The notes below the pieces were generated by a model. The model worked only from the letters and a program-made list of their open reading frames with translations. It made no database searches and had not been told where the DNA came from. This document shows, piece by piece, positions 11,330-43,421 of a stretch of DNA of 64,000 nucleotides. The position numbers were made by a program, and so were the translations under genes. The DNA is from an uncultured Clostridia bacterium (GTDB lineage Bacteria; Bacillota; Clostridia; TANB77; CAG-508). The DNA is taken from the NCBI GenBank assembly GCA_949948835.1, contig CATLHF010000005.1, forward strand, positions 30,245-94,244, in the 5' to 3' direction. The first letter of the stretch is position 1, and every line of letters begins with the position of its first letter.

Positions 11330-13432
11330 TTAATTTTGTGTTTGGGTATATGGTGTTGCTGTTACATCTTCTGTTACTTGCTCCGCATTCATTCCAAAAT
11401 ATTGTGCCATAACATCACGGGCAGCTTCTGCTGTATATCCTCCATGTCCACCATTCTCTACTAAAATAACAACTGCAATTTCTGGATTATCGAATGGTGC
11501 AAATCCGATAAACCAAGCATGAGTAATTTCATTTCCTTGTTTGTCTTCTCCTGCTTGTGCAGAACCCGTTTTTCCTCCTACTTCGATATTGAAATTTCTA
11601 AAGTAAGAATATGCTGTTCCTCCTCTATCACTCGTAACGGATTTCATACCATTTAGAATAACTTTTAAATTATCTGGGTTAATGGTAATTCCGTCATTTT
11701 CTTCTTCTGTTATTCCTAATTTTTCATTAAAGTATGCTTCGTATTCTTGTTTTGGCACTTCTGTACCATCTACGTTTCTGATTTGTTTAATAATAGTTGG
11801 TTTAATGACATTTCCGCCATTTGTTAGCATACTTGTATATTTTGCCATTTGTATTGGTGTAAACAAATTGTTAATCTGTCCAATTGCTGCTTGGATGGTA
11901 TCTCCTGGGTTCCAAGTAACTCCTTCTTTTCTTTCATTTGTTCTTCCTTTTTCTTCCCCTGGAAGTTCAATTCCTGTTTTCTTTCCTAAACCAAAATGCT
12001 TGGTATATCTTGCTAAATTATCAATTCCTGCTAAACGTCCCGTTTCATAAAAGAAATAGTTACAAGAATGTTGTATTGCTGATGTTACATTCATTGGACC
12101 ATGTCCTCTACGATTCCAGCAATATGGTTGATAATCTTTATAATACGTATATCTTCCTACATCGTTAATTCTTGTGTTTTTGTTAATAACTCTTGTCTCT
12201 AATCCTGTTACTGCAGTAACCATTTTGTAAATAGAACCTGGTTGGTAAATCTCTTGAAGAGCACGATTACGTAATGGTTTATTGATTGCATCATTATAAA
12301 CATTCCATGTTGCTGAATCAATTCCAAATGTGAATTTAGAAGGCTCATAATCTGGATAACTTGCCATTGCTAAAACTTCTCCGGTTTTTACATCCATCAC
12401 TACCATCGCTCCACCTGTTGCATTAGATGTTTCACTAAAGCCACCGTTTCTTATTTTTTCAACATTATTTTTTAGTGCTTGCTCAGTGGCAGCTTGTAAA
12501 TTAGCATCAATTGTCAAAATAACATCTGCACCTTGTATGGCTTCTTTTTGTATATATTCATCAGTTACCGTTCCGTCTACCGCCATATCAATTTGTTTAA
12601 TACCATCCGCTCCTCTTAAATATTTTTCTGCTATTTTTTCAATTCCTGCTTGTCCATAAAAATCGTTCATTGTATAGCCATTTTCTTTTTCTTGCTTATA
12701 TTGTTCATCTGTAATTCTTGATGTATATCCTAAAATATGAGATGCCAACGTTCCTTTTGGATAGTATCGAATTGGTTGTGTTATGGTATTAATTCCTGGA
12801 AATGAATCCTTTTGTTCATTAAATATATTAAAGCTTTCTAAACTAATATTGTTGGCTATTGTAACCGATTTTGTCGCACTATAGCCTTCTACTGCTATAT
12901 GATATCTCATTGCAATTATTTTTCTTGTTTCTTCAATATTGTCATTTTCTATTTTATATTTTTCTTTAAATTTATAAAAAGTTTCTTCTGGCGACAAATT
13001 TTCATCTAACTTATTGCTTGTTTTCCACTTTTTTTGTCTTTGTTCATCTTGATAAGTAAATGCAAATGGGTTAATTGTTATTGGAAAATCATCAATATAT
13101 TTACTGTTATTTTGTTCTAATACATTTGCAATTTTAAGTAAGGTTTCATTTAAGGTGTTATTATCAATCTTACTTTTATAAATTTCTAAGCTAAAACTAG
13201 TAGTGGTTCCTACCATATCGGTTCCACTTCGATCTGTAATAGAGCCTCTTGCTGCTTTTAAAGTACTTTCTCTAGTTAATCTGGTATTGGAGGTTTGTCT
13301 ATATTCTTCCCCATGAATAATTTGGAGATTAAATAGTTGAACAAGCAAAATAATTCCAACCAAATAAACGCCAGTTATGACAATATTATAGCGAAATTTA
13401 TAGTTTGGTTTATTGGTTTTTGATACTTTCAC
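11330..13432 (-). CDS. Penicillin-binding protein 2 / peptidoglycan D,D-transpeptidase (MrdA/SpoVD family).
   Basis: 700 aa with an N-terminal TM anchor and a transpeptidase domain. Located between mreD and minC. Confidence 0.85.
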   Translation of the reverse strand: MKVSKTNKPNYKFRYNIVITGVYLVGIILLVQLFNLQIIHGEEYRQTSNTRLTRESTLKAARGSITDRSGTDMVGTTTSFSLEIYKSKIDNNTLNETLLKIANVLEQNNSKYIDDFPITINPFAFTYQDEQRQKKWKTSNKLDENLSPEETFYKFKEKYKIENDNIEETRKIIAMRYHIAVEGYSATKSVTIANNISLESFNIFNEQKDSFPGINTITQPIRYYPKGTLASHILGYTSRITDEQYKQEKENGYTMNDFYGQAGIEKIAEKYLRGADGIKQIDMAVDGTVTDEYIQKEAIQGADVILTIDANLQAATEQALKNNVEKIRNGGFSETSNATGGAMVVMDVKTGEVLAMASYPDYEPSKFTFGIDSATWNVYNDAINKPLRNRALQEIYQPGSIYKMVTAVTGLETRVINKNTRINDVGRYTYYKDYQPYCWNRRGHGPMNVTSAIQHSCNYFFYETGRLAGIDNLARYTKHFGLGKKTGIELPGEEKGRTNERKEGVTWNPGDTIQAAIGQINNLFTPIQMAKYTSMLTNGGNVIKPTIIKQIRNVDGTEVPKQEYEAYFNEKLGITEEENDGITINPDNLKVILNGMKSVTSDRGGTAYSYFRNFNIEVGGKTGSAQAGEDKQGNEITHAWFIGFAPFDNPEIAVVILVENGGHGGYTAEAARDVMAQYFGMNAEQVTEDVTATPYTQTQN

Positions 13433-13450
13433 TTGTATGCCCTCCTTCTT

Positions 13451-13984
13451 TTAAAAATATCTGGTTAAGATTTTCTTTTGACGAAATACTTCTTCTATAT
13501 AATATCCTGCTTTTTGTAGCAAAGAATAAAAGATAATGACAAGAAGTATATGATAAACAATTTCTATCATAATAATTTTTAAAAACGGTATTATTTCAAT
13601 AGTTGATGATAGGATGAAATGATTTAGTATATACATTCCAAATTCATAAACAAATGTAACCACTGCTGTCATTAAGATAATCGTCATTCTACTATCTTTG
13701 GAAAAGTTTTTATCTAGAATTCCTCCTAATCCCCCTATAACTCCTAGCATAATTGCAGATACTCCTATTTTTTTACTAATAAAAAAATCTAACATAAGTC
13801 CCATTAGTAATCCAAGTGGAATTCCAATTCTTTTACCACCAAATAGAGCTATAAATAAAACAAATATCACAAAAAGATTCGGAGAAATTCCTGCAATGGT
13901 AAACCAATTAAAAAAATTGATTTGTAAAAAATATAAGATTAAGAATAATAGAATGATTCCTATTACAATTAAGGTATTTTTCAT
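13451..13984 (-). CDS. mreD: Rod shape-determining protein MreD.
   Basis: 177-aa polytopic membrane protein immediately downstream of mreC. Confidence 0.75.
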   Translation of the reverse strand: MKNTLIVIGIILLFLILYFLQINFFNWFTIAGISPNLFVIFVLFIALFGGKRIGIPLGLLMGLMLDFFISKKIGVSAIMLGVIGGLGGILDKNFSKDSRMTIILMTAVVTFVYEFGMYILNHFILSSTIEIIPFLKIIMIEIVYHILLVIIFYSLLQKAGYYIEEVFRQKKILTRYF

Positions 13985-15976: not shown

Positions 15977-16626
15977 TAATAACGTGGTCTAATAGAGTAA
16001 TTCCCATTATATCTGCACATTCATAAATTCGGTCTGTTACTCTATAGTCTGCATCACTTGGTGATGGATCCCCACTTGGGTGATTATGCACCAAGATAAT
16101 TTTAGGTGCATTCATTTTGATAGGCTCTGCAAGAATATTTAATGGCTCAATACTTGCAAAGCTTGTACCACCGAAGTGTAATATTGATATTTTTTAGTAC
16201 TACGTTTTTGGAATTTAAGATTAAGAGTTTGACGATTTCTCTTTTTTCATATTTTAATTCGTCCATTAATAAGTCTGCTACATCTTTTGTCGTTTTAATC
16301 ACTGTTTTTAAGGAATGAATTGGTTTTGACATTCTTTTAGCAAGTTCACAAGTAGCTAAGATTTGTATTGCTTTTACTTTTCCGATTCCTTTGATTTTCA
16401 TTAGTTCTTCCATTGATATATCTTGTAGAAATCGTAGGTCTTTTGCTCCATTTGCGTTTTGTAAGTTTAGTATTTTTTGTGCAAGTCCAACAGAGGTATC
16501 CTCTTTTGTTCCGCATTTTATAATAATTGCTAATAATTCGGAATCGGATAACATCTCTGTTCCATACATTTGTGCCTTTTCATAGGGTCTTTCTGATTCT
16601 GGGAGTTCTTTCATTTTTAAACTCAT
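15930..16626 (-). pseudogene. radC: DNA repair protein RadC (JAB/MPN). Frame interrupted at an in-frame CGG (16171-16173, read on the minus strand as CUU-CGG-U).
   Basis: The N-terminal 159-aa ORF is HhH-like. The C-terminal 61-aa ORF carries HNHPSGDPSPS. Skipping the C gives ...NINITL-GGTSFASIEP..., matching the RadC consensus ISIGT..S.VHP. Confidence 0.75.
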
Positions 16627-18920: not shown

Positions 18921-19196
18921 AAAAAATCCTTAAAAACACTCCTGTTTTCAAGCCTTTTTACATTCCACTTTTTTCTATGTTTTCTTTGTTAGTGTCATTT
19001 TATCGTAACTATTTTTTTTACACAATGACTTTGTGGCTCTGTATATGTTAATTATTTTATTTTATCTTCGATTAACTCGTTTTTACTCTTTCTATCTCTC
19101 TATATTTTATAATTGTAATCAAATTGTAATATTTTGTCGAAACATTAGGCTTTATAAGGATTAAAATTTTTTATTTTTTTATGTAAAAAAGGATTG

Positions 19197-19230
19197 CATT
19201 AAATGCAATCCAAAATTTATTTATTCATCT
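19197..19230 (-). terminator. Rho-independent terminator of pilin-like gene A.
   Basis: GGATTGCATT-taat-GCAATCC followed by TTTTTT on the minus strand. Confidence 0.6.
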
Positions 19231-20367
19231 ATAATTGTCCATGCTCCTTCTTCATTCTTTCCATTTGTTTTAACTGTTGGTTTTAAATAGACAACGGCTC
19301 TAGGAACCATCATCCAAGTATCATTTTCCCCAACTGTCGCCCACTGAGCCTCAGCAAGATTATATCCGTGCAATAATACCACCATAATTGCTAGATTGAA
19401 TAAAAGTTCCTAAATAGTATCGATTATTTTCAATATAACTAGTACGAGAAGCTATATAATACATTCCCCCTTGAAAAATCAAATCATGTAATGGATGGTC
19501 GGAACTTATGACATCTGTATGCTTATATGAGTAATTTTTACTTGTCGTAAGGGTAACATCTGCTGTTTGTTCACTTATACCTGTTTCAGTAGCGGTTGTA
19601 GGGAAACATGCATAACGGCTATCCCATGTTTCTTCTGTAGGGTTTGGTGTATATCCTAATGCTCTGTTAATATCTTCTATTGTAACACTTCTTGCACCAC
19701 TTCCTGTTATCGTTCCTGTTTTTAATATATCTCGTGGACCTCCTGTTTGATAAGTAAATGTTTTAGTAGTATCTGCTCCTTTTCCATAGCCATATATTGC
19801 ACATAATGAATGTAATTCTTGCTCTAGATATAGGTATCCAATCGTTCCTTGTATTTGAAAATAATTTGAAGTTACAGCTCCATTACTCATCAATACTACT
19901 TCTCCTGTTGTAGTATCTTTACTTAATACTCTCCATTTTGCATACGACGTTGGAGTAATAGTTTTTTCTTGATAACCATTCCCATGTGAACTTCCAGTTC
20001 CTTTTGGCGATGTATAACTTAGTTTAGATGGATCAGTTACTCCATCTGTTGGATCATATGCTACATAATCTCCTATATTTACTTTATCTGCTAACCTCCA
20101 TGGTCCTACTGGGTCTTCTGGTCCTTCTCCTTCTGAATTACTGTTTCCATTTTCACCTGGTATCATATTCTGTGCTTCGTTAAAGAAATTTCCTATTGCA
20201 CCTTGCTCATATTCTGCTGCATTTTGATAATTCTTTCCTGACTCTTTTGCCATGGTTAAGATTCCATGTTCACCTATTGTTAGGTTTATTGTAATCCCTG
20301 TCAAAATTAGTAATACAATAATTGTAATCACAAGCGCTATTAATGTAATACCTTTTCTACTTTTCAT
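19221..20367 (-). pseudogene. Pilin-like variable protein, paralog A. Frame interrupted at an in-frame CGG (19366-19368) and continues in +1 to 19221.
   Basis: N-terminus MKSRKGITLIALVITIIVLLILTGITI. Frame 0 stops 2 codons after GCA-CGG-A. Skipping the C yields ...MMVPRAVVYLKPTVKTNGKNEEGAWTIIDE, which matches the C-terminal motif of paralog B (GIRPVVHLKTG). Confidence 0.6.
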
Positions 20368-20475
20368 TTTCTTTTGTTCCTCCTATCTTAAATTTCCTAG
20401 TTTTGTATTTTACTACTTGTATGAATAGTATGCACAATTTAAAATAACTTCATACTTGTTTAACACTATGCTATC

Positions 20476-20504
20476 ATTTTATGGTTACTAATGATATTTG
20501 TCAA
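20476..20504 (-). promoter_or_regulatory. Sigma-A-type promoter of paralog A.
   Basis: Minus strand reads TTGACA, 17 nt, TAAAAT (plus-strand tgtcaa at 20499-20504 and atttta at 20476-20481). Confidence 0.5.
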
Positions 20505-20649
20505 GTGTTTTATTTATTTATTAAATTTTTATTAGTAAAGCAAAAGAGAACAGTAGTATTGCTTAGTATCCTCTTTTTAAAAAGTATATTGTAATTTTTT
20601 TAGTCTTTCTATTGTTGTTTTTAGCATTTCTTCATATTTTTCAAGTTTT

Positions 20650-20725
20650 CACTTTTCTTTTGTCTCCTTTTACTTTTTTGTTTTATTATACATTTGCGTT
20701 TAGGAGAACTCAATAAAATGAATAG
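20650..20725 (-). promoter_or_regulatory. Orphan copy of the conserved paralog promoter-5'UTR-start cassette. Its start codon is mutated to GTG and is followed by an immediate stop.
   Basis: About 75 bp nearly identical to the regions upstream of genes B and C (TTGAGT-17-TATAAT plus RBS AAAGGAGA), but GTG AAA ACT TGA follows. Confidence 0.55.
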
Positions 20726-20997
20726 AATTTAAGTATAATATTTTTACATAATCTCTTTGATTATCTTTGCAAATTCTTCACTAATTCCTTTTACTTCCAT
20801 TAACTCTTATGCGGACTAATGTCTTTTCGTTTACCTATCGTATAATAAATATCTGTCTTTGTATTAATATCTTTTTAACAATTTTCTTTCTATTTTTATT
20901 ACCTCTATTTTGGTCAAAGTATTAGAGTTTTTAAAGATTCAATTTTTTTAAAAAATTTTATAACAAAAGAAGGTATTTTATAAATACCTTCTCATTA

Positions 20998-22023
20998 TTA
21001 TTTAGATTGTAAATTCCACATATTAGTAGTTTCATTCCATTGTGCCATGATTCCAGTTTTTAAATGAACAACTGGGCGTATTCCAAACTTATTAAGGTTA
21101 ATAGACATCGAATTTAACCCATTCGTATATTGAACCGTACAAATTACATTTGGCTTATTTAACGTAGTGCCAGCACCGTGAGGTGTTGCTAAAACATATC
21201 CACAGTTAGTACCAACATAGTCTGTGTGTGGAAAATACAATTCATCACTCGTATCTATATTAATCAAAGGGGTATCAGGAGCGTTTTTAGAATAGGTAAC
21301 CCCGTAATCTGAAGCCCCTAATCTACCTAAATAATTTGTTCCGCTCTTTTCATCATAACTTGATGCAAACATTCTTACAGTTGGACCTCCAATAGCCAGG
21401 TCTGCATAATTAGTATTAACAAAAGAACCCCAATTATTTGTATTTAATAATGTTGATACTACTTTTGAGTTATCGTAATTACTTCTCAACTGAAAAGGTT
21501 GAATAAATAAATTGGCATTTGTTGACCAATTTGACTGAAATGTTGGAACTGTATTCCAATATACATTATAGTCCCCACTTGTTACACTTCCTGTTGAAGC
21601 AGTTGGTACTTTGGAAGCAGGTATACAATCTGAGGCTATTATAAACACCTCGCCATTTGCATCCTTATAAAATAGTTTCCAATCTTCAATTCCATTTGCA
21701 CTATAATTTACTCTATCTCCATAATAATTTGAAATTAATGTATCACCTAATTCAACTACACTAGTTGGTCTTCCCGTATCTCCTGGATTTGTTCCTGTTC
21801 CATTACCATTTCCACCTGCTATGATATTCTGTGCTTCGTTAAAGAAATTTCCTATTGCACCTTGCTCATATTCCGCTGCATTTTGATAATTCTTTCCTGC
21901 CTGTTTTGCCATGATTAAGATACCATGTTCTCCTATTGTTAGATTAATTGTAATTCCTGCTAAAATTAATAATACAATAATTGTGATAACTAATGCGATA
22001 AGTGTTATTCCCTTGTTTTTCAT
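20998..22023 (-). CDS. Pilin-like variable protein, paralog B (341 aa).
   Basis: Conserved N-terminal 65 aa MKNKGITLIALVITIIVLLILAGITINLTIGEHGIL...NFFNEAQNII. Divergent core. C-terminus has GIRPVVHLKTG. Confidence 0.7.
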   Translation of the reverse strand: MKNKGITLIALVITIIVLLILAGITINLTIGEHGILIMAKQAGKNYQNAAEYEQGAIGNFFNEAQNIIAGGNGNGTGTNPGDTGRPTSVVELGDTLISNYYGDRVNYSANGIEDWKLFYKDANGEVFIIASDCIPASKVPTASTGSVTSGDYNVYWNTVPTFQSNWSTNANLFIQPFQLRSNYDNSKVVSTLLNTNNWGSFVNTNYADLAIGGPTVRMFASSYDEKSGTNYLGRLGASDYGVTYSKNAPDTPLINIDTSDELYFPHTDYVGTNCGYVLATPHGAGTTLNKPNVICTVQYTNGLNSMSINLNKFGIRPVVHLKTGIMAQWNETTNMWNLQSK

Positions 22024-22055
22024 TTTTCTTTTGTCTCCTTTTACTTTTTTGTTTT

Positions 22056-22084
22056 ATTATACATTTACGTTTAGGAGAACTCAA
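22056..22084 (-). promoter_or_regulatory. Conserved sigma-A promoter (TTGAGT-17-TATAAT) of paralog B.
   Basis: Plus strand has actcaa at 22079-22084 and attata at 22056-22061. RBS AAAGGAGA sits 8 nt before the ATG. The same block is repeated at 23290-23318 and 20685-20713. Confidence 0.55.
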
Positions 22085-22296
22085 TAAAATGAATGGTTTT
22101 TGAATATTACTTTTTTACATAATTTTTTCTTTTTTGATTTCTAAGTTTTAGAATTTTTAAGAATACTTTTTGATTTTCTTTGATTTAATTTTTTGAATAA
22201 AACAATTGATATAAATATGCATTTATCATATTATGGCAAATAAAAATAGTCAATCCATTGTAACAATAAATGATTGACTATTTCTATTTCATTTTT

Positions 22297-23257
22297 TTAT
22301 TGCGCCACTAATTTAAATGGATTTGCTTGACTTCCATCTCCACCATTCGTCTTGAGCTCCGGAAACAGACTGATAACAGGTCTTACTCCCATCGTCATAG
22401 ATTTTCCGGCGGGCTGTATTTGGCACCACACTAGCTGACACTGTATATATTCGACACAAATACTCTCCATCCGTCATCGTTTCAACAACCATATTATACG
22501 AAGCATATGTAATTAGAAAAATAACATCAGTCCCACTATTGGGATCTTGCACCGCCCTACTAGCGTACCAATATTTTCCCCCTTTATTCTGAATGCCTCC
22601 TCCTTGACTTTTAGCATTACGCATCGCTTCGTCATCAGTATTCCACGTTGAAATTCCTACTTTACAACCAGAATCCTTACTTCCATTATAATTTGCTGAC
22701 AACATATAATGTTCTGTTGTATTATCATCTGGATTTAATGGATCACTTCCTACACACCTTCCAGAAATTGCATATTTATCATTCACATATTTTCTACAAT
22801 ATGTATTTAATTTTTCTACCCCTTGATTATAATCTTCTCTTGCTTCATTTACATTGTTGCTTCCGATTGTCATTTCACCTAGTATTTCATCACTTATTAT
22901 TTGTATTCCATATGTTTCATCATTATACAATACTCTCCACAAACCATTATAGCCGTTTCCTCCATTATATTCCACGTAGTCTCCTGGTTGTACTTTCGTT
23001 TTTAACGTCTCTATTTCTACTGGAACTATTGGTGTGTTTCCATTTCCACCTACAATTATATTTTGTGCTTCGTTAAAAAAGTCTCCTATTGCTTCTTGCT
23101 CATATTCTGCTGCATTCTGATAATTTTTTCCTGCTTCTTTTGCCATGGTTAAGATACCACGTTCTCCTATTGTTAGATTAATTGTAATTCCTGCTAAAAT
23201 TAATAGCACAATAATTGTGATAACCAATGCGATAAGTGTTATTCCCTTGTTTTTCAT
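22297..23257 (-). CDS. Pilin-like variable protein, paralog C. The track ORF is 22313..23257, but the family-conserved C-terminus lies in the +1 frame after an in-frame CGG at 22406-22408.
   Basis: Frame 0 after CGC-CGG gives KIYDDGSKTCYQ...KSI*. The +1 frame gives GKSMTMGVRPVISLFPELKTNGGDGSQANPFKLVAQ*, which carries the RPV(V/I)xLK...KTNG motif shared with paralogs A and B. Confidence 0.55.
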
Positions 23258-23289
23258 TTTTCTTTTGTCTCCTTTTACTTTTTTGTTTT

Positions 23290-23318
23290 ATTATACATTT
23301 ACGTTTAGGAAAACTCAA
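23290..23318 (-). promoter_or_regulatory. Conserved sigma-A promoter of paralog C.
   Basis: Same TTGAGT-17-TATAAT block as upstream of paralog B. Confidence 0.5.
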
Positions 23319-23382
23319 TAAAATCAATGCTTTTTGAGTATCACTATTTTACGTAAAAAAGTAGACTTTAAAGTCTACTTTT

Positions 23383-23628
23383 TTATGCTTGTAATTCTGT
23401 TTTAACACTATCTACTTCTGTAACGCTTGCTTTTGCAGCTGGTTTATAGTATCCTTTTGTTTCCGCAATTTTGAAAAGCTCATATTGGAAACTTTCGTCA
23501 TTGTTTCTAATTTGTTGTAGTGTTTGTCTTAATTGCATATTTTCGCATTCTGAAATTGCATTTTGATAGGTTGTTAAATCGGTTTTAACATTACCTAAAA
23601 TATCATTTACCATTGTTTTTTCGTCCAT
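23383..23628 (-). CDS. CotF-like spore coat protein (Coat_F domain).
   Basis: 81 aa. Motif ...AISECENMQLRQTLQQI resembles the CotF family. RBS GGAGG. Confidence 0.55.
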   Translation of the reverse strand: MDEKTMVNDILGNVKTDLTTYQNAISECENMQLRQTLQQIRNNDESFQYELFKIAETKGYYKPAAKASVTEVDSVKTELQA

Positions 23629-23942: not shown

Positions 23943-26900
23943 TTATATTATTTCTAATCCTGCAAATTTTGCCATTAGGCGTTTATGTCCTACTTTATCA
24001 AATGTAATGTCTACTTTTAGGTCATCTCCTTCTTGTTCCACATAGTTTATGATTCCTTCTCCAAATTTCTTGTGATATACTCGTTTTCCTGCTTCGTATT
24101 TTGATAGGTCTATTTCTTGTTTTGGTTGGTTTGATAAGTTGTTTAAGAAGCTTTCGGCTGTTCGAAAAGCAAATGTATTTGATTTATTAATAGAACTTTT
24201 TACATTTTCTGCTTTTGCACTGTCCATTTTATAAGATGTTATATTGCTTCTATTATTTCCATATTGCCATCCATATGGACTTTCATTTACCATATTTTCT
24301 TTATTGTTTTGTATTTCTTCTAATCCCTCTAAATATTCTTCTGGGATTTCTTCAACAAATCTTGACATTGCATTATAACTAGTTGAACCAAAAATAGTTC
24401 TATGTTTCGCACAAGTAAAGTATAGATTATTTTGTGCTCTCGTAATTCCTACATAACATAAACGTCTTTCTTCTTCTAATTCTTTTGGCTCACCAATGGA
24501 TTTATACCCTGGAAAGATTCCTTCTTCCATTCCCACTAAAAATACAACTGGGAATTCTAGCCCTTTTGCACTATGTAATGTCATAAGGGTAACACAATCT
24601 TCACTTTCTTCTAAATTATCGATATCACTAGATAATGTAATACTTTCTAAAAATTCAGCAAGTGTATTATCTGCTGATTGTTCTTCAAATTCAATCGCGA
24701 CAGTTAAAAATTCTTCTAAGTTTTCGATACGGTTTTCTGCTTCAATTGAATTTTCTAATTCTAATGCTTTTGTATATCCTGTTTTATTTAATGTTTCTTT
24801 AATTAATTCTGAAATTTCAATTTGTCCAGCAAGTCCTCTTAGTTCCTCAATTGTTTCAATAAATTCTCTTGAGTTTACAAAAACACGATTTAATCCGTAG
24901 CTTGCGGCATCTTTAATAATTTCATACATGGATTTCGAATTTTCTTCTGCTATTTTTTGAACTTGTTCTAAACTTGTCTTCCCTATTCCACGCTTTGGTT
25001 CATTAATGATACGCATTAAACTTAAGTTATCATTTGGATTAAAGATTAATCTTAAATATGCGATAATATCTTTAATTTCTTTTCTTTCGTAGAATTTTAA
25101 TCCCCCAATAATTTTATAAGGAATATCTTCTCTTACCAAAATTTCCTCAATGGCACGAGATTGTGTATTCATTCGGTAAAGTACTGCAAAATCTGAATAC
25201 TTATAGTATTCTTCCCTTTTTAGGTGATTAATTTGCTCCACAAGATATCGTGCTTCATCATATTCATCTTCTGCTTTATATACGATTGGTAAATTTCCTT
25301 TTTCATTTTCAGTCCATAGTTTTTTATCGTATTTTACTTCATTATTTTTAATAACAGCATTGGCAGCATTTAAGATATTTCCTGTACAACGGTAATTTTG
25401 TTCTAGTTTAATAATTTTGGTTCCTGGGAAGTCACGTTCAAAGTTTAATATGTTTGAAATATCTGATCCTCTAAATCCATATATACAATTATGCACACAA
25501 ATTCCGTTCGCAAAATATTGCCTATATTCAGGAATATCAATATCATATACAGTTCCATTGTAATCATATCGTTCTACTTTCTTTACAATGTCTTTTTTCA
25601 ATACTCCATTATCGTTTATTGCAACAATCATATTTTCTCTTATATGTCCCAATGGCATAAAATTAAAATACTCTTCTTTTAATAACTTTATTTTATTAGA
25701 AATAATAATCTCTTCATCTACATTACTAATTTCTTTTACTAATTTATATGCTTCATCATAATTCGCTCTTGTAGTTTCAATTCTCCATGTAGAAGCTTTT
25801 CCTTTCCTTGTTATAAATCCCTTTCTTTCTAATTTATTTTTTAATTCTTTACTAGATGAATTTATATAAATTCTATGACTACATGGTTTTGTCTTTTTTT
25901 CGTCTCCTCCTAATATAGCAAAATTTAAAATTTTCCTTTGTGTTCCTCCTCTTATAGACGCTTGGGGAACTGCTATAGGATATTCTTTATATAGTTGCAA
26001 ATCTTCCATTAATTTATTAACTCTTTCTTCTGTTGGAATATTATAATACAATTGGTTAATTTTCTCTTGCGTCCATTGCACCTCTCTTCCTTTCGGGTGA
26101 AAAACTAATGTTGGAATTCCATATGTAAATGCATAAAATGACTCATAGTATCTTGCTTCTTGTAAATTATCACATACTTTTAATAGCCACATTTTATCTG
26201 CTTTCTCTTGTCTCATTCTAACCTTTAGACCATTCTCAATCTCACTGTAGTCATTTTTTCTTACTCCACTTGTTTGTCCAATTCTATATCCTAGTCCCTC
26301 TTTATACATCAAATACACATAAAATTTATTATATTCTGGAACTAAATTTGCAAAAACAATATGGTTTCCTGTACCTTCAATAGAGTATCCCTTTTGTGTT
26401 GTAATTTTTATTATCTTTCCTTTATATTTCTTCTCTTTTTTTCTTTCTACAACACCTTTTTGAATTTTCCCATTACCAGACGCACTTAACACCACGTCAC
26501 CAATTTGTATTTCTCTAATTTCTTTATTTCCATTTTCTGTTGCAATTAATGTATCTCCTACAAGGCATTGGTCGTTATCACCAACAACAGTGATATTTCC
26601 ATATCTAGATGCTAGAAGTGATACTAACATAAATTGTGCTTTGTTGGTATCTTGGTATTCATCTACTAATACATATTGGAATTTCTCTGTATAATATTCT
26701 AATACATCTGGATTTTCGGTTAATATTTTAATGGTAAAATTAATAATATCATCAAAATCAACAGCATTATTTTCTTTTAATCGTTTTTGGTATAACGTGT
26801 ATACACTTGCTATTTTTTCTTTTCTAAAATCTCCATTTGCTCTTGCAAGATACGCATCTGGCTCTAACATTTCATTTTTTGCATTACTAATCTCAGATGC

Positions 26901-27320
26901 TACAATTCGATCTGTGAACATTTTGTCATCAATATTTAGGTCTTTTAAACAATTTTTAATCATCATTCTTTGGTCTGAAGTATCAAAAATAATAAAAGAT
27001 GACTCAAATCCAATTCTATCAATATATCTTCTTAAAATACGCACACAAATAGCATGAAATGTTCCAATCCACATATCACGTGCTACTTTCCCTACTAATT
27101 TTTCTACTCTTTCTTTCATTTCGTTTGCTGCTTTATTGGTAAAAGTAATGGCTAATATATTCCATGGTTTTATCCCTTTTTCTTGCATTAAATAAGCGAT
27201 TTTATGTGTTAATACTTTTGTTTTTCCACTACCCGCTCCTGCAATAACAAGGCTTGGTCCTTCGTAATTTACAACTGCTTCATATTGTTTATCATTTAAT
27301 CCTTCTAATATTTCCTTCAT
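23943..27320 (-). CDS. pcrA: ATP-dependent DNA helicase PcrA (UvrD family) carrying a 360-aa intein in motif III.
   Basis: N-terminus matches PcrA (GPSLVIAGAGSGKTKVLTHKIAYL, FTNKAANEM). The extein junction is VVGDNDQ | C...VHN | CIYGFRGSDI. Walker B DEYQDT. Total 1125 aa. Confidence 0.85.
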   Translation of the reverse strand: MKEILEGLNDKQYEAVVNYEGPSLVIAGAGSGKTKVLTHKIAYLMQEKGIKPWNILAITFTNKAANEMKERVEKLVGKVARDMWIGTFHAICVRILRRYIDRIGFESSFIIFDTSDQRMMIKNCLKDLNIDDKMFTDRIVASEISNAKNEMLEPDAYLARANGDFRKEKIASVYTLYQKRLKENNAVDFDDIINFTIKILTENPDVLEYYTEKFQYVLVDEYQDTNKAQFMLVSLLASRYGNITVVGDNDQCLVGDTLIATENGNKEIREIQIGDVVLSASGNGKIQKGVVERKKEKKYKGKIIKITTQKGYSIEGTGNHIVFANLVPEYNKFYVYLMYKEGLGYRIGQTSGVRKNDYSEIENGLKVRMRQEKADKMWLLKVCDNLQEARYYESFYAFTYGIPTLVFHPKGREVQWTQEKINQLYYNIPTEERVNKLMEDLQLYKEYPIAVPQASIRGGTQRKILNFAILGGDEKKTKPCSHRIYINSSSKELKNKLERKGFITRKGKASTWRIETTRANYDEAYKLVKEISNVDEEIIISNKIKLLKEEYFNFMPLGHIRENMIVAINDNGVLKKDIVKKVERYDYNGTVYDIDIPEYRQYFANGICVHNCIYGFRGSDISNILNFERDFPGTKIIKLEQNYRCTGNILNAANAVIKNNEVKYDKKLWTENEKGNLPIVYKAEDEYDEARYLVEQINHLKREEYYKYSDFAVLYRMNTQSRAIEEILVREDIPYKIIGGLKFYERKEIKDIIAYLRLIFNPNDNLSLMRIINEPKRGIGKTSLEQVQKIAEENSKSMYEIIKDAASYGLNRVFVNSREFIETIEELRGLAGQIEISELIKETLNKTGYTKALELENSIEAENRIENLEEFLTVAIEFEEQSADNTLAEFLESITLSSDIDNLEESEDCVTLMTLHSAKGLEFPVVFLVGMEEGIFPGYKSIGEPKELEEERRLCYVGITRAQNNLYFTCAKHRTIFGSTSYNAMSRFVEEIPEEYLEGLEEIQNNKENMVNESPYGWQYGNNRSNITSYKMDSAKAENVKSSINKSNTFAFRTAESFLNNLSNQPKQEIDLSKYEAGKRVYHKKFGEGIINYVEQEGDDLKVDITFDKVGHKRLMAKFAGLEII
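25488..26567 (-). mobile_element. Intein (about 360 aa, with an endonuclease-like middle region) inserted in PcrA.
   Basis: Starts with Cys (CLVGDTLIA, block A), has block B TGNHIVF, ends GICVHN followed by a +1 Cys. The host sequence flanking it is the continuous UvrD motif III GDxDQ-IYGFRG. Confidence 0.75.
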
Positions 27321-31709: not shown

Positions 31710-34700
31710 TTATAATACAAATTTCTTAATGAAGTAAATGCCACCTGCTAAGGTAATACATATAATTGCTGTTAGTGTAATATACATTCTTGCTTCACCT
31801 GTCTTAACTGCTAGGATAACTGGTGCATTGTCGATGTCATCTTCTCCTGGTTTGTTGTTATCTGGAGTTGAGTCAATATCTGGTGCATCATATTCGTTAT
31901 CGTCTTTACTAATTTCTGCCCAGTTTACTTTTAATCCTAGGTTTTTATCACTATTTTCCCAAGTAAGTAGAATTTCTACCGTTGTACTTTCTCCTGGTTT
32001 TAATAATTGGTCTTTTACTTGGTCAGTTGTTACTTCTCTTTCACCAACTTGTTTCCATAGTGGGTTATCTTTTGGATCAAATTTTAATCCAACTGGAATG
32101 TAATCTTTAATTTCTTTTACATATCCTTCGATTTCACCTTCGTTGGTTACTTTGATTTTGTATTTAAACTTAACAGTTACTTTCTTTAAGTCTTTTGCTT
32201 TTAAATCTACTTTTACAACTGGTTCTGGATTCTCTTCTCCTGTATGTCCAGTTTCAGTAATGGTCTGTTTTCCGTTTTCAATAACAATTGCTTGTGTTAC
32301 CCATTTTTTAAGTGCTAAGTCAAAATATTGTACTTTTACTTTATCAATATCAATATCATCTTCTCCTGGTTTATTATTTCCTGGAGTTGAATCTACATCA
32401 TCTACTGGTTTGCCATCTTCATCGGTATCTTCAGAAATTTCTGCTGTGTTTATTAAAATTCTATCTGATGTGTTTGGTTCTGTTACTTTAAATGCAATTT
32501 TTACATCTCTATGGTCTGGGTTTGTATCACTAAGTCCTGCTTCTACATCAAATGCCTTTAATAAATTTTCACCTGCTTGTTTTTCTTGTTCTTTTGATAA
32601 ATAATCGGTCGTTATTTTTACAGCACTTGCAACATCTGTTGTTTCTTTTCCGTCTTTATCAATCATTTTCCAACGGTACTCTACGTTTGTTTCATTTTCT
32701 GGTAAGAATAATAGTCCTTCTGGTAAATCATCTGTAATTTCAGACGCATAACCATTCATTGTTCCTTCGTTATAAATTCTTATGGTATATGTTACAATAT
32801 TTGTATTTGCTACTAATACTGGTTCTTTTGTATGAGTATATTTGATATTTCCATCTTCGCCCATACTTAATTGTGGATATCGATTGTTAATGTCTAAATT
32901 ATTTACTTTTGTAATAAATTTTCTTAAAGCTAAATCAAAGTATACAATTTTTACACTATCGAAATCGTCATCGTCCTCTTGTCCCGGAATGTATTTATCA
33001 CCACGATTAATTTCGTCATCTTTGTAATTTGGTAATTTTTCATCATCTGGTAATATTACATTATCTTCTTTAGAGTCAATATCTTTTATAGTATTTCCAT
33101 TTTCATCAGTAAAGTCTGTAATGTCTGCAATGTTTACAATTCGTTTACTGTATTTTGCATCTGCTGTTACTTTGCAATTTACACTAACTTCTTTATAAGA
33201 TAGGGTTTCTCCATCAAATGCTTTAATTAAATTCTTTTCGTTTGCTTCTTTTGATAAGTAATTTGTTTTGATGGTTCTATGTGTTTCGTCCGTTTCATCA
33301 TAACTCCATCCTTTTGCAATATTTTCCTTATCTTCTGGTAAAAATTCTAATTGTTCTGGTAGATGGTCTGTTATTTCTGATGCATATCCATCTTTTGGTC
33401 CTTCATTATAAACACGAATCGTATAAGTTACAATATCTCCTACTTTTACATCAAGTGGTGCTTTTGGATGATTGTAAATAGCAGTTGTTGCAGTTCCTGC
33501 TACTAGTCCAGATACATCTACAACTGGTTCTCTACTAATTTCTGGTACTTTTCCATTTACTGCTGTAATAAATTTTCTTAAAGCTAAATCAAAATATGTA
33601 ATTCTTACATTATCAAAATCATCGTCATCTTGCTGTCCTGGAATGTAGTTATCACCACGGTTAATTTCTTCTTCTTTATAATTTGGTAGATTTTCGTCAC
33701 TTGGTACTACTACATTGTTTTCTTGAGAGTCTCTATCAATTACAGTATTTCCGTTTTTATCTGTAAATCCAGTAATATCTGCAATATTTACAATTCTTTT
33801 ATCAAAGTTACGGTCTGCTACTACTTTACATTTAACTTTAACTTCTTTATAGTCTAATGTATTCCCACCATCATATGCTTTAATTAAGTTGTCACTATCT
33901 AAGTCTCCAGATAGGTGTGATGTTTTAATTGTTCTTAATGACATATCCGTTTCATCATATACCCATCCGTTTGCAATATTGTCTTCATCTTCTGGTAAAA
34001 ATTCTAGTTGTGATGGTAAATGGTCAGTTATTTCAGTTACATATCCATCTTTTTGTCCTTCATTGTAAACACGAATTGTGTATGTTACAATATCCCCTAT
34101 TTCTACTGCAATTGGTGCTTTTGGATGATTGTAAATAGCGGTTGTTGCAGTTCCTGCTTTTAATCCAGATACATCTACAACTGGTTCTCTACTAATAGCT
34201 GGTGCTTTTCCATTAACAGCACTTATAAATTTTCTTAAACTTAAGTCAAATGGTTTTGGTGCAATATAGATACTATCAAAATCGTCATCATCTTGTTGTC
34301 CTGGAATGTATTCATCTCCACGGTTAATTTCTTCTTTTTTATAATTTGGTAGATTTTCATCAGATGGTAATGTTACATTATCTGCTTGTGAATCTCTATC
34401 AACAACTGGGTTACCATTTTTATTGGTAAAGTCTGTAATATCTGCAATGTTTACAATTCGCTTTCCTTCTGGTGCTGTTTCTTTTAATTTACATCTTACT
34501 TCTATGTCTTTGTAGTCTAGTGTATTTCCACCATCATATGCTTTTAGTAAATTACTTTCTCCGTTTTCTTTTGATAAGTAATCGGTTTTGATTGTTCTTT
34601 TGGTAGTGTCGGTTTCATCATATTTCCATCCATATTCTATGTTTTTACTGTCATTTGGTAAAAACTCAAGTTCTGGTGGTAAATGATCAGTTATTTCTGA

Positions 34701-36263
34701 TGCATATCCATCTTTTTGTCCTTCATTGTAAACTCTTATTGTATAAGTAATAATATCTTTCTCTTTTACTTCAATTGGTGTTTTTGGATGTTTATAAGTA
34801 GCAGTTGTTGCGGTTCCTGCTTTTAATGCAGATACATCAACGATTGGTTCTCTACTAACTGATACTTTTACTCCATTTACTTCAGAAATAAATTTTCTTA
34901 AAGCTAAGTCAAATGGTTTTGGTGTTGGTATTGCTACTGTTACAGTATCTTCATAGTTAACTGGTACTTTTTCTACTAATACAACTGGTTGTTCGTTACG
35001 GTATGTTGCTTCGTCTGTTGTATAATAAGTAGCATTTGTTTTTTGATATGTAATACTAATATCAAATTTGATACTTGCAATTTCTGTAGTTTCTGGTATG
35101 CGGATATAAAAATCCTGTCCAAATAGGCTTTGTATATTGTTATTTGCCACTTGATTTTTGTTTGCATCTAATAATGTATAGTTAAATGCATTTCCTGCTT
35201 CATCTGCAAAACCTAATTTATTTATTGTATATGGTAAATCTGAATTTTGGTTAATACGGAATGGTCCAACAAGGTAGTTTTCATCATCTGCTACAATTGT
35301 TACTCTTGTTTTATCAAATGCTAAAGGAGAAACGACATCTTTTGATTCGTAAGTTCCTTTTGTTTTTGCATTTGTTAAGAAATAACGATATAACATTTCA
35401 CATTCTTGTTGACGAAATAACCCGTTATCTGCTTGTTCTGTGTTATATAAATCTTCGAATGTTTCGTATTTTTCATCTTTACCAGACCAGTTATTAAACG
35501 ATAGAACTGGTAATTCTTCATTATGATAATTACTGTTTTCTGGATTTGTAAAATACCAAAGCGCCATTTGTTGAACAACTTCAATATCATCGTCTGTTAT
35601 TTTTACATGCTCTATTGTATAGTTTGAGTCGATAATACCTGCAGCTGTTAATAATGCTACTTTTTCTGCTTGCGTACTTTGTTTTGGCAAATACATATTA
35701 TCTAAAATCCACATAACTTTATTGTATGAAGTCGCATCTGTTTTAAAAACATCAATTGCTTGTAATCTTGTTAATACTTCTTGTTTTTGAGATTTCATAT
35801 CAAATTTTTGATTATATGTTTTTTTAACAGTTGTTACATTGGTATTTCCATTATCCATCATAAAACCATGTTCTGCTTTTAAACAATAAAAAGCATTTGA
35901 GTAATCGATTTTTGTGCTACTGGTTGTTGGATAGGAAACAATTTTCCATACTTTTTTATTTGGCATACCATTACTTTTTATGCCAAGTCCATAAGCTCCT
36001 CCATTTTTTCCATTTTGTGCTTCTCTAACATTTGTAATTCCTAATACATAGTTAGCATTTGCTGCATATGTTGTTCCTTCACCTATTGCTAACATTGTGC
36101 AAAGGATCATCGTAACAGCCATAAACATTCCGATTAATTTTTTCAGATTCATATTTCTTACCTTCCTTATAAAAATTATAATGATACTATCATATATTTT
36201 ACTTTCATCTGTTTTGTTCGTCAATAGCAGGTTTTTCCAATTTCTTCGTTTTTCTTTTGGCAT
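31710..36263 (-). CDS. Giant surface protein (1517 aa). Signal peptide, four or more tandem DUF11-like repeats, Cna-B-like domains, C-terminal LAVKTGE-TM-KKFVL anchor.
   Basis: Near-identical repeats GDIVTYTIRVYNEGQKDGY(A/V)(S/T)EITDHLP...LEFLPEDxxNI. C-terminus VILAVKTGEARMYITLTAIICITLAGGIYFIKKFVL. Confidence 0.75.
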   Translation of the reverse strand: MPKEKRRNWKNLLLTNKTDESKIYDSIIIIFIRKVRNMNLKKLIGMFMAVTMILCTMLAIGEGTTYAANANYVLGITNVREAQNGKNGGAYGLGIKSNGMPNKKVWKIVSYPTTSSTKIDYSNAFYCLKAEHGFMMDNGNTNVTTVKKTYNQKFDMKSQKQEVLTRLQAIDVFKTDATSYNKVMWILDNMYLPKQSTQAEKVALLTAAGIIDSNYTIEHVKITDDDIEVVQQMALWYFTNPENSNYHNEELPVLSFNNWSGKDEKYETFEDLYNTEQADNGLFRQQECEMLYRYFLTNAKTKGTYESKDVVSPLAFDKTRVTIVADDENYLVGPFRINQNSDLPYTINKLGFADEAGNAFNYTLLDANKNQVANNNIQSLFGQDFYIRIPETTEIASIKFDISITYQKTNATYYTTDEATYRNEQPVVLVEKVPVNYEDTVTVAIPTPKPFDLALRKFISEVNGVKVSVSREPIVDVSALKAGTATTATYKHPKTPIEVKEKDIITYTIRVYNEGQKDGYASEITDHLPPELEFLPNDSKNIEYGWKYDETDTTKRTIKTDYLSKENGESNLLKAYDGGNTLDYKDIEVRCKLKETAPEGKRIVNIADITDFTNKNGNPVVDRDSQADNVTLPSDENLPNYKKEEINRGDEYIPGQQDDDDFDSIYIAPKPFDLSLRKFISAVNGKAPAISREPVVDVSGLKAGTATTAIYNHPKAPIAVEIGDIVTYTIRVYNEGQKDGYVTEITDHLPSQLEFLPEDEDNIANGWVYDETDMSLRTIKTSHLSGDLDSDNLIKAYDGGNTLDYKEVKVKCKVVADRNFDKRIVNIADITGFTDKNGNTVIDRDSQENNVVVPSDENLPNYKEEEINRGDNYIPGQQDDDDFDNVRITYFDLALRKFITAVNGKVPEISREPVVDVSGLVAGTATTAIYNHPKAPLDVKVGDIVTYTIRVYNEGPKDGYASEITDHLPEQLEFLPEDKENIAKGWSYDETDETHRTIKTNYLSKEANEKNLIKAFDGETLSYKEVSVNCKVTADAKYSKRIVNIADITDFTDENGNTIKDIDSKEDNVILPDDEKLPNYKDDEINRGDKYIPGQEDDDDFDSVKIVYFDLALRKFITKVNNLDINNRYPQLSMGEDGNIKYTHTKEPVLVANTNIVTYTIRIYNEGTMNGYASEITDDLPEGLLFLPENETNVEYRWKMIDKDGKETTDVASAVKITTDYLSKEQEKQAGENLLKAFDVEAGLSDTNPDHRDVKIAFKVTEPNTSDRILINTAEISEDTDEDGKPVDDVDSTPGNNKPGEDDIDIDKVKVQYFDLALKKWVTQAIVIENGKQTITETGHTGEENPEPVVKVDLKAKDLKKVTVKFKYKIKVTNEGEIEGYVKEIKDYIPVGLKFDPKDNPLWKQVGEREVTTDQVKDQLLKPGESTTVEILLTWENSDKNLGLKVNWAEISKDDNEYDAPDIDSTPDNNKPGEDDIDNAPVILAVKTGEARMYITLTAIICITLAGGIYFIKKFVL

Positions 36264-36631: not shown

Positions 36632-36707
36632 GCGAAAGTAGCTCATCTGGTAGAGCGTCGCCTTGCCAAGGCGAAGGTAGCGGGTTCGAGCCCCGTCTTT
36701 CGCTCCA
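36632..36707 (+). tRNA. tRNA-Gly (anticodon GCC).
   Basis: Cloverleaf: acceptor GCGAAAG/CTTTCGC, anticodon loop TTGCCAA, T-loop GCGGGTTCGAGCCCCGT, encoded CCA. Confidence 0.85.
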
Positions 36708-36723
36708 AAAATTATATATTTAT

Positions 36724-36797
36724 GGCGCCTTAGCCAAGCGGTAAGGCACGAGTCTGCAAAACTCTGATGATCGGTCCGACTCCGATAGGCGCCTCCA
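36724..36797 (+). tRNA. tRNA-Cys (anticodon GCA).
   Basis: Acceptor GGCGCCT/AGGCGCC, D-loop GCCAAGCGGTAAGGC typical of tRNA-Cys, anticodon loop CTGCAAA, CCA end. Confidence 0.75.
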
Positions 36798-41529: not shown

Positions 41530-43408
41530 TTATAATTCAATCTCATGATATGGAATATTTTTTTCTCGTAATATATCTTTTTCCCTATCTGTACAAGTTA
41601 GCATTAGAATTTGACGGTCTTTATATTCTGTATGTAAAAATTCTAGTATGTTTTCTAATCGTTCTTTATCGTAATAAGCAAATGCTTCGTCTAAGATAAT
41701 TGGTAATGGTTCATTTGAAATCTGTGTTCCTGCACCTAGTCTTAGCGATAAATATAATTGGTCTATGGTTCCAATACTTAAATAGTCTACTGGAATATAA
41801 TCTCCATTTTCAATTTCTACAATTAATCCATCTTTTTCATCTAACTTTATATTTGTATATTTTCCATTTGATATATTTTGCATAATTTCGGATAATTTAT
41901 TGGTAAATTTAGGGGTTACTTTTTTCTTCATTTGAACATATGCTTTTTCTAATTCCTGTTTTGCAAGTTCAATTGCTTCATTTTGAAGCATTAGCGCTTG
42001 ATATTCTTCCTCTAGTTTTGCATATTCTTCTTCTAAATTAGCAAGTGTTTCTAACTTTGGTAAGATATTACTTTTATCTAGTCCAATACTTTGAATTTTT
42101 AATTTGTTTTCACCTATTTTATTGTTTGCTACTTCTATTTCAATACTTGCTTGCCTTTTGGATAATAATTCATCTATTGTTTTGATTGGAATAATACCAA
42201 TATAGGCATTTCGAATTTTTTCGATTTCTTCTTTATAGCTTATTTCCGATTGTTTCGATAGTTCTTCTTGTTCTTTTTGTAGTGTTTTTATTGTTTCTTT
42301 CATAACTTCTATTTGTGCTACTACTTTTTGGTTATCTACACTTTGTGATTCTTTCTTACTATGAAATGCAACCTTTTTCTTGTATTGTGTATAACCTAGG
42401 TAAATCATGCTGAGCGTAGTAAGTACAATACTAATAGCACTTATGATATCATTTTTAATTACCATAACTGATAATATCGTAAATAACATTAGTACTATTA
42501 ATGTTATTAGTTGTATCATGTCATATTTACTATTTTTTTCTTCGTTTGAAGTATGTTTTTTTGAATAGGTCATTTCGTCTATTTTTCTTTTGTATTCTTT
42601 TACTGTGTTTTGGTTAATTTTTATTTTCTCTTGTTGTAATGAATATGTATCTTCCACTTTTTTAAGTTCTCTTAACACTTCAATATTCATTTGTTGTTGT
42701 TTAATTTCTTCTTCTAGTTGTTTCTTATTTTCCTCTATATCATATTTTTTCTCTACAAATTGGTTTAAATATTCTTTTTCTTCTGCAATTTCATTAAGTC
42801 TTTTTGAAACTAGATTAATAGGTCTATCTTGGCTTCTTCCGTGTTCCAACTTCTTCTAATTGTCTTTTATTTAGTTTGTTTACTATCTTTTGGTAAGATA
42901 GATTGTCTTCTCCTGTGCTTACTAGGTTCGATAATTTTTGTAACAATGATGTCTGTTCTTTTCCTTCTAATTTTGTTTCGTTTTGCAAAGATATAATAGT
43001 AGAAGTAAATAGTTCTTCTTCTACTCCTGTTTGGTCAGTAAAGAAACAATTTCCTATCGTTTTATCGATGGTAAAATTCTTTGATATTTCTTCTAAATTT
43101 TGGTTATAGATTTTAGGAGATTTCTTTTTAAATTCGCGAAATACTTCATATGTTTCTCCATTTTCTAATTGATAATTTATTTTTCCGGAGAAGTCGCCTT
43201 CCTGCCATGGGGTATATTTTTCGTAATCCGTATAGTTTTTTCCGTTTTTGTTTTTGGATAGGCCATAAAACATGGATAATATGAATTTAAGTAGAGTAGA
43301 TTTTCCACTCTCGTTTTTTCCGTAAATGATGTTTATGTGGTCTTTTAGCATAATTTCTCTATTTTTTAGTTTTCCAAATTGATTTATTTTTAGGGTTTTA
43401 AGTTTCAT
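41530..43408 (-). pseudogene. sbcC: SbcC/Rad50-like ATPase subunit of the SbcCD nuclease. Frame interrupted at an in-frame CGG (42839-42841).
   Basis: The N-terminal ORF carries Walker A GKNESGKST. The C-terminal ORF has a coiled coil and the signature/Walker B ILDEAFAYYD. Skipping the C joins ...EEVGT-GRSQDRPINLVSKRL... Confidence 0.7.
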
Positions 43409-43421
43409 GGTGACCTCCTTT

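Follow-up and report, generated by a model that had tools for sequence, protein, structure and literature searches.

A paralog array of putatively anchored, lectin-like surface proteins with two frameshifted copies in the chromosome of an uncultured Clostridia bacterium

We analysed a stretch of 64,000 nt from contig CATLHF010000005.1 of an uncultured Clostridia bacterium (referred to as the window; coordinates are given as window positions), which contains three adjacent genes, A, B and C, on the minus strand at 19221-23330. The window is chromosomal DNA with a GC content of ~30% and shows the gene order minC, PBP2, mreDCB, radC, DUF4321, mecA, M23 peptidase, A, an orphan promoter cassette, B, C, cotF-like genes and pcrA with an intein. 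The three genes probably represent an array of paralogs coding for anchored, lectin-like surface binders, of which one copy seems to be working and two appear inactivated. The features of the array are:

19191-19211, minus strand: intrinsic-terminator-like hairpin 3' of gene A (terminator scan)
19221-19385, minus strand: tail of gene A in the +1 frame, 'LLHGYNLAEAQ...VPRAVVYLKPTVKTNGKNEEGAWTIIDE', aligning to the C-termini of intact homologues
19360-20367, minus strand: main open reading frame (ORF) of gene A, 335 amino acids (aa), with pilin-like N-terminal module, Gly/Asn linker and A-type core
20476-20504, minus strand: promoter-like site of gene A, TTGACA-17-TAAAAT, 11/12 matches
20506-23379, no strand assigned: extra block of ~2.9 kb (C, B and orphan), not present at the syntenic locus in a related lineage (L096-L099)
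20641-20778, minus strand: orphan cassette, consisting of the promoter/leader block and ribosome-binding site, then GTG AAA ACT TGA, with no coding body
20967-20993, minus strand: terminator-like hairpin 3' of gene B (terminator scan)
20998-22023, minus strand: gene B, 341 aa, the sole intact copy
22056-22084, minus strand: promoter-like site of gene B, TTGAGT-17-TATAAT
22297-22470, minus strand: tail of gene C in the +1 frame, '...AGKSMTMGVRPVISLFPELKTNGGDGSQANPFKLVAQ'
22313-23257, minus strand: main ORF of gene C, 314 aa
23290-23318, minus strand: promoter-like site of gene C, TTGAGT-17-TATAAT

The near-identical N-termini reported in the original prediction, which had been made from the DNA sequence alone, were confirmed, with 91-93% identity over the first 68 residues of the three proteins. 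On the DNA level, promoter, leader and codons 1-73 form a direct repeat of 300 nt, which is 92% identical between B and C and 73% between A and B, and the similarity stops near codon 74, at a Gly/Asn-rich stretch. As had been described, B, C and the orphan share a promoter and ribosome-binding site: the repeat alignment shows TTGAGT-17-TATAAT, AAAGGAGAC and the start codon as one common block, and B and C differ at only one of ~70 positions upstream of the ATG (counted by hand on the alignment). The orphan carries the hexamers at 20713-20685 and indeed starts with GTG and ends after three codons, reading GTG AAA ACT TGA at 20652-20641. The different promoter of gene A was also found as expected (20504-20476), and the same type is kept upstream of the single A orthologue in L096 and of an unlinked paralog in L100. 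Because promoter-like hexamers are not enriched over shuffled sequences in this AT-rich stretch (27 observed versus 22.4 +/- 5 expected), promoter function is assumed here from position and conservation rather than from the scan. An AT-rich hairpin with a T-run was seen by eye 3' of gene C, which the terminator scan did not flag, and an Rfam search of the array region retrieved no RNA family.

The proteins start with MK(S/N)(R/K)KG|ITLIALVITIIVLLIL(A/T)G, consisting of a short basic leader that ends with Gly at position -1 and is followed by about 20 hydrophobic residues. This corresponds to the class III-like signal with Ala at +5 noted before, and the signature [KR]G-ITLIALVITIIVLLILAG with Ala at +5 represents a variant of the prepilin signal across the entire family. 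The module is almost invariant: among 323 relatives, position -2 is occupied by Lys or Arg in 71% and -1 by Gly in 91% or Ala in 8%, followed by Ile at +1 (97%), Thr at +2 (100%) and Leu at +3 (100%); position +5 is Ala in 91%, which includes the residue of the three proteins here, and Ser in 7%, and Glu occurs in none. The leader has a median length of 9 aa, and ...ILAG and a G-x-x-G-I-L-x-x-A motif follow these positions. The Pfam profile N_methyl (PF07963) scored 14.7-14.9 bits with A, B and C, which is below its cut-off of 21.2, and the NCBIfam pilin profile (TIGR02532) gave no match with them at E <= 1. N_methyl was matched at E <= 0.01 by 16 of 80 and 18 of 65 relatives (best E 3.5e-5), and type IV pilins were the only matches of the family profile among the PDB sequences (E 0.04-0.15). 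Judged by these sequence relationships, the N-terminal module looks clearly pilin-derived. It is also widespread, as searching with the 68-residue module alone retrieved 18,494 representatives of clusters at 50% identity at E <= 1e-3 (520 at E <= 1e-10), while the search with B yielded more than 4,456 relatives. In gut metagenomes, the module is joined to many different C-terminal domains, and tandem arrays of two to four such genes are present in L091, L017, L066, L032 and L061. Other relatives occur singly or in short arrays amid unrelated housekeeping or sporulation genes.

The protein encoded by gene B comprises a transmembrane helix (residues 4-30), a second helix (35-68), a disordered segment (70-79) and a DUF6273-like globular domain (90-341) ending with GIRPVVHLK. 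AlphaFold2 models of B and of A with its two frames rejoined (predicted local distance difference test, pLDDT, 88 and 86, respectively) show the same layout, with a transmembrane helix, a break at residues 31-34, a helix of lower confidence at 35-68, a disordered Gly/Asn linker at 69-84 and a separate globular domain. Comparing the B model with BFVD gave DUF6273 proteins of phages as top matches (probability 1.00 and 0.97; E 2.3e-4 and 1.1e-3), and 21 of 65 B-type relatives match the corresponding Pfam family PF19789 at E <= 0.01 (best E 6.4e-6). DUF6273 has been described as a C-type-lectin-like domain carrying at its C-terminal end the variable region of diversity-generating retroelements (DGRs) (PMC10743442, PMC11792537). 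A phage origin of the family was considered and rejected, with only 6 weak matches obtained in 2.9 million viral contigs, mostly at contig ends.

The original prediction had regarded the central domains of the three proteins as unrelated. This holds at the level of BLASTP, which detected no similarity among the cores (E > 0.1), but not at that of profile-profile comparison, by which they are homologous: hhalign paired A and C with 98.8% probability (E 7e-17, 211 columns), A and B with 95.9% (73 C-terminal columns) and B and C with 96.0% (41 columns). All three cores share the frame [YW]-x-[IL]-A-[ST]-[RP] ... R-P-V-[VI]-x-L, and the segment between these two motifs is the hypervariable part in the homologue sets. 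From these profiles and the fold matches of B, we classify the A, B and C cores as members of a single DUF6273-like domain family that have diverged from each other.

The original prediction had proposed that the proteins are perhaps minor pilins or competence pseudopilins. As minor or tip pilins, they would be cut after Gly-1 by a prepilin peptidase and become tip subunits of a type IV pilus or a competence pseudopilus, lacking Glu5 and carrying a lectin-like adhesin head. Because the restriction to Gly or Ala at -1 is strict, processing by a prepilin peptidase can be argued for, and the predominance of Lys and Arg at -2 together with the invariant Thr+2 and Leu+3 points in the same direction, as do the weak N_methyl matches of A, B and C (E 3.5e-5 to 9e-5 in relatives), the pilins as sole PDB sequence matches and one member that NCBI names a prepilin-type protein. 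Glu5 is also lacking in tip pseudopilins such as GspK. However, Glu5 was never seen in the family, A, B and C stay under the N_methyl cut-off and lack an NCBIfam pilin match, and the predicted structures are not of the pilin type: neither B nor A shows a long alpha1 helix packed on an alpha-beta pilin domain or roll, and their globular domain is attached through a disordered linker instead. A Pfam scan of the 40 window ORFs detected no PilB/C/D/T-like, competence-pilus or secretion genes, and no pilins with Glu5 were present in the window and ~1 Mb of fetched loci (33 of at least 15 kb), in which the family genes are dispersed among sporulation and housekeeping genes. Because Glu5, the pilin fold and a pilus gene context are all missing, incorporation into a filament is argued against, and we regard the assignment as pilins as unlikely.

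The conserved C-terminal RPV motif, which had been attributed to all three genes, is in the zero frame in B only (GIRPVVHLKTG). In A and C it is located in the +1 frame, a shift that had gone unnoticed, which identifies both genes as frameshifted. The zero frame of gene A runs into a premature stop after '...NYGGIIARI', its shift site lies between GGT GGT ATT ATT and this stop (~19360-19377), and the motif following in the +1 frame is degenerate ('VPRAVVYLKPTVKTNG...AWTIIDE'), whereas the A-type homologues (350-420 aa; P0070, P0154-P0199) read through the same junction unbroken. In gene C, the motif 'GVRPVISLFPELKTNG' and the conserved end 'GVRPVISLFPELKTNGGDGSQANPFKLVAQ' are part of the +1 frame ORF at 22297-22470. 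Its frame is lost at ~22406-22414, where GCCCGCCGG probably contains one C too many: removing one C from this sequence gives back '...VPNTAAGKSMTMGVRPV...', and the intact C-type homologues (P0138-P0150) continue unbroken across the junction and end with '...G[LV]RP[CV]I[ST]L...GGDG...'.

Neither shift can be attributed to a sequencing error because both recur in independent assemblies. The split of A is present in six Logan assemblies from other samples, three of which were aligned and proved 100% identical to the window, and also in L096-L099, which represent a lineage 86-94% identical to the window in nucleotides, while the frameshifted reading of C is found in L115, an independent ENA assembly with 99.5% identity. 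In the model of the rejoined A protein, the tail contributes confident strands of the core (pLDDT 83-97). Because these inherited +1 shifts precede strands modelled in the domain core, A and C are most likely inactivated copies. A third paralog of their clade (P0052 from L100) is shifted in the opposite direction (-1), and frameshifts in the variable segment are frequent in this clade.

We also considered whether the shifts of A and C may serve as on/off switches or programmed +1 sites, allowing the full-length proteins to be made conditionally, but deem this highly improbable. The split of A is common to lineages ~14% apart in nucleotides with the +1 tail open in both, the dN/dS value of the tail (ratio of non-synonymous to synonymous divergence, 0.55) is close to that of the core (0.44), the tail forms an integral part of the modelled structure, and the zero-frame stop is directly preceded by a rare CGG codon, all of which would fit a recoded gene. 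Against this, neither the site of A nor that of C shows a slippery P-site codon or a long homopolymer, the zero-frame stop is not in the same position in both lineages, and P0052 is shifted the other way. Moreover, an open tail of 51 codons would survive such divergence by chance with a probability of ~35-40%, according to a rough estimate.

Comparing the locus with that of a related lineage revealed a difference in copy number. The genes of L096-L099 are arranged as pcrA, cotF, a single A-type gene, M23 peptidase and mecA, and this A-type gene shares both its promoter type and its frameshift with gene A; in BLASTN alignments with the window, the homology stops behind cotF at 23380 and restarts at 20505. 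The copy number of the array therefore varies, because this related lineage contains gene A alone at the locus. The divergence of gene A itself is highly uneven. Between window positions 19360-20367 and 2794-3807 of L096, we obtained a synonymous divergence (dS) of 0.175 for the core (dN/dS 0.44) and 1.11 for the N-terminal 70 codons (dN/dS 0.108). For the +1 frame tail, dS was 0.235 (dN/dS 0.55, based on few sites), and for the flanking genes 0.45-0.54 (dN/dS 0.01-0.13). Because of these very different synonymous divergences of its segments, gene A is regarded as a mosaic, and the values suggest that its core was recently exchanged and its N-terminal cassette replaced by the copy of another paralog. 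In a different genome, P0016 carries a near-identical N-terminus (98%) on a different core, and the unlinked paralog P0052 (L100, 3357-4327) is located downstream of uvrC behind an A-type promoter, with its -1 shift just before 'RLRPVFLVK...GGDG'. Modular evolution at the boundary of promoter and N-terminus and variation in copy number are hence real, in agreement with the cassette diversification proposed before. The idea of swappable tips found no support.

An exact scan of metagenomes for the promoter cassette gave no match. Many assemblies were found via the flanking MecA and CotF proteins and were 99.5-100% identical to the window where checked, but their contigs end at one of two sites, the N-terminal cassette repeat (20194) and the palindromic terminator of cotF (23355). 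We rejected these ends as polymorphisms and consider them assembly breaks. The cotF terminator is a perfect bidirectional hairpin with a stem of 16 bp 3' of cotF (23352-23387). Public contigs rarely span the array because short-read unitigs break at this hairpin and at the N-terminal cassette.

A relative of A, B and C is the target of a DGR. The human-gut metagenome contig L055 contains a complete DGR cassette at 9977-13741, whose target gene codes for a protein of 572 aa with the same pilin-like N-terminus. Its variable region (VR, 11566-11692) differs from the template repeat (TR, 11930-12056) exclusively at TR adenines (18/18 mismatches), and genes for a reverse transcriptase (RT; RVT_1, 12300-13415) and for bAvd (13388-13741) follow on the minus strand. 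An ORF with a MutS_I domain adjoins the cassette. In L052 and L057, one gene of the family is virtually identical, yet its last ~110 nt differ at ~17% of the positions. Because L055 pairs a complete DGR with a gene of the same N-terminal module, at least part of the superfamily is DGR-diversified. This agrees with published work, according to which cellular DGRs usually target membrane-anchored C-lectin proteins (PMC8144416).

The segment of A, B and C before G-x-R-P-V-V might accordingly be, or have been, a variable region rewritten by a DGR elsewhere in the genome, with the frameshifts as collateral damage or as decay after DGR loss. Apart from the bona fide target in L055, such a history would suit the observation that close A- and C-type homologues differ mainly in this segment, in a pattern rich in Asn, Tyr, Ser, Gly and Asp, that all three frameshifts localized in the clade (A, C and P0052) fall into it, and that in both A and C its GC content is raised and its A content lowered. 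The 64-kb window, however, contains neither a template-like repeat matching a 3' end of the three genes nor an RT or Avd gene, an RT was found near only one of 33 long related loci (at least 15 kb), and the alignment of A with its L096 orthologue, inspected by eye and uncounted, shows no obvious adenine-only pattern in the segment. We therefore think it rather doubtful that the array was shaped in this way.

Our preferred interpretation, to which we assign a probability of roughly 0.6, is that A, B and C form an array of paralogs for anchored, lectin-like surface binders with one working and two inactivated copies, belonging to a huge uncharacterised family of gut Clostridia. Each protein would be anchored in the membrane with its N-terminus by the short basic leader and the pilin-derived hydrophobic helix ([KR]G-ITLIALVITIIVLLILAG), followed by a helical stalk of ~35 residues, a flexible linker rich in Gly and Asn and a divergent DUF6273-type domain, reported to be C-type-lectin-like, which would expose a variable surface just before the G-x-R-P-V-V-x-L strand. 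The anatomy of the array, the homology, the frameshifts, the difference in copy number and the DGR targeting of one relative are shown by the data, and from these we infer the surface location, the binding of ligands and the consequence of the frameshifts. Each gene of the array would have its own sigma-70-like promoter and terminator, and duplication together with recombination at the conserved module of promoter and N-terminus may have enlarged the array, with gene A as the old resident and the block of C, B and the orphan as the extra part. The high dN/dS of the A core (0.44 versus 0.01-0.13 in flanking genes) is in favour of this interpretation.

Several observations weigh against it. The score of B with PF19789 (16.0 bits, E 0.011) is below the Pfam cut-off of 23.5, the A- and C-type cores match no Pfam family, and Foldseek found no significant PDB match for the A model and only a weak one for B (E 0.028), namely the T. 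ramosa IgA peptidase (9qa6), whose N-terminal domain is a DUF6273 domain (PMC12402451). The C-lectin label of DUF6273 is as reported in the literature and does not derive from a significant match obtained here. The conserved Gly or Ala at -1 suggests that a prepilin peptidase processes the proteins, a step that a plain anchor in the membrane would not require. Finally, A is only a probable pseudogene because its +1 tail has kept an open frame and a fair degree of conservation between the lineages (dN/dS 0.55, few sites).

More speculatively, gut Clostridia may use the invariant [KR]G-ITLIALVITIIVLLILAG module as a separate signal of the class III type, without Glu5, for export and anchoring, by which lectin-like heads, some of them open to DGR diversification, would be brought to the tip of a pilus or into an undescribed display pathway, and the tandem arrays with frameshifted copies may represent a switchable binding repertoire; we offer this as a tentative proposal that is probably not correct in this form. 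What the family does unite are two well-studied subjects, the prepilin-type signal, here without Glu5, and the C-lectin-type domain known as a substrate of DGR diversification. A, B and C themselves are ordinary members of a family already abundant in databases, which appears to be concentrated in the human gut because most of the recovered metagenome contigs come from there. The literature search indicated that the family is experimentally untouched, and a full-text search returned no paper containing the N-terminal peptide or mentioning DGRs together with prepilins. If the proteins act as surface adhesins or receptors as preferred here, such arrays would be a source of strain-level differences in binding by gut Clostridia, to which the presence or absence of copies, mosaic N-termini and inactivated copies may contribute, and the relatives of the L055 type show hypermutation in at least some members of the family.

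Further features were observed in the window outside of the array. The pcrA/UvrD helicase gene (23943-27320) is split by an intein, with Intein_splicing and Hint domains over residues ~250-611 of 1125. The radC gene also appears split, as the 159-aa ORF at 16147-16626 contains only UPF0758_N and HhH domains, and in the near-identical contig L101 the JAB part of RadC is called as its own gene of 61 aa (window ~15980-16140). Giant ORFs are located on the minus strand at 1-4359 (at least 1453 aa, running off the window), 4338-9335 (1665 aa) and 31710-36263 (1517 aa), the latter two with adhesin-type domains (DUF11/CLIPPER, SdrD_B) and the 1517-aa one also with a thioester domain. A pair of genes for tRNA-Gly(GCC) and tRNA-Cys(GCA) is present at 36632-36797. 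Amid housekeeping genes lies the gene for a VirD4/TraG-type coupling protein of type IV secretion (518 aa, 44595-46151), in whose vicinity no further conjugation genes were recognised; the ORFs upstream of it (42824-44489) contain domains of calcineurin-like phosphoesterases and AAA_23 ATPases. The gene for the small signal recognition particle RNA (Rfam RF00169) is on the minus strand at 59723-59819. An array of clustered regularly interspaced short palindromic repeats (CRISPR) is located at 59958-60722, which consists of ~11.6 units with a period of 66 and a repeat of roughly GTTATAGTTCCCTACTAAGTTTTGATATGATATAAT. Beside it are a cas2-sized ORF (60834-61166), cas1 (Pfam Cas_Cas1, 61147-62049) and an ORF of 644 aa (62053-63987).

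Three known systems resemble the array in part. With type IV pilins and pseudopilins (PF07963), A, B and C share the basic leader ending with Gly, the sequence T-L-I-x-L-(V/I)-I and the hydrophobic helix of ~20 residues, along with weak profile matches, but the hallmark Glu5 is replaced by Ala (or Ser) and Phe1 by Ile in the family, and A and B have neither a predicted pilin globular fold nor the context of a pilus operon. Membrane-anchored variable proteins of cellular DGRs (PMC8144416) have the same general design of an N-terminal anchor or signal combined with a C-terminal variable domain of the C-lectin type, and the relative in L055 is a textbook example of them. In contrast to these cellular DGR proteins, the window is devoid of TR, RT and Avd and two of the three copies are frameshifted. 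TvpA and LdtA, two proteins of this kind, are lipoproteins and not pilin-anchored. The DUF6273 targets of phage DGRs differ from A, B and C in that the latter are chromosomal, carry a pilin-like anchor in place of tail-fibre or Ig domains, have no DGR at their locus and include A- and C-type cores outside the Pfam model; yet these phage proteins are the best match of the B model and share with B the G-x-R-P-V-V-x-L end with the variable segment just before it (PMC11792537).

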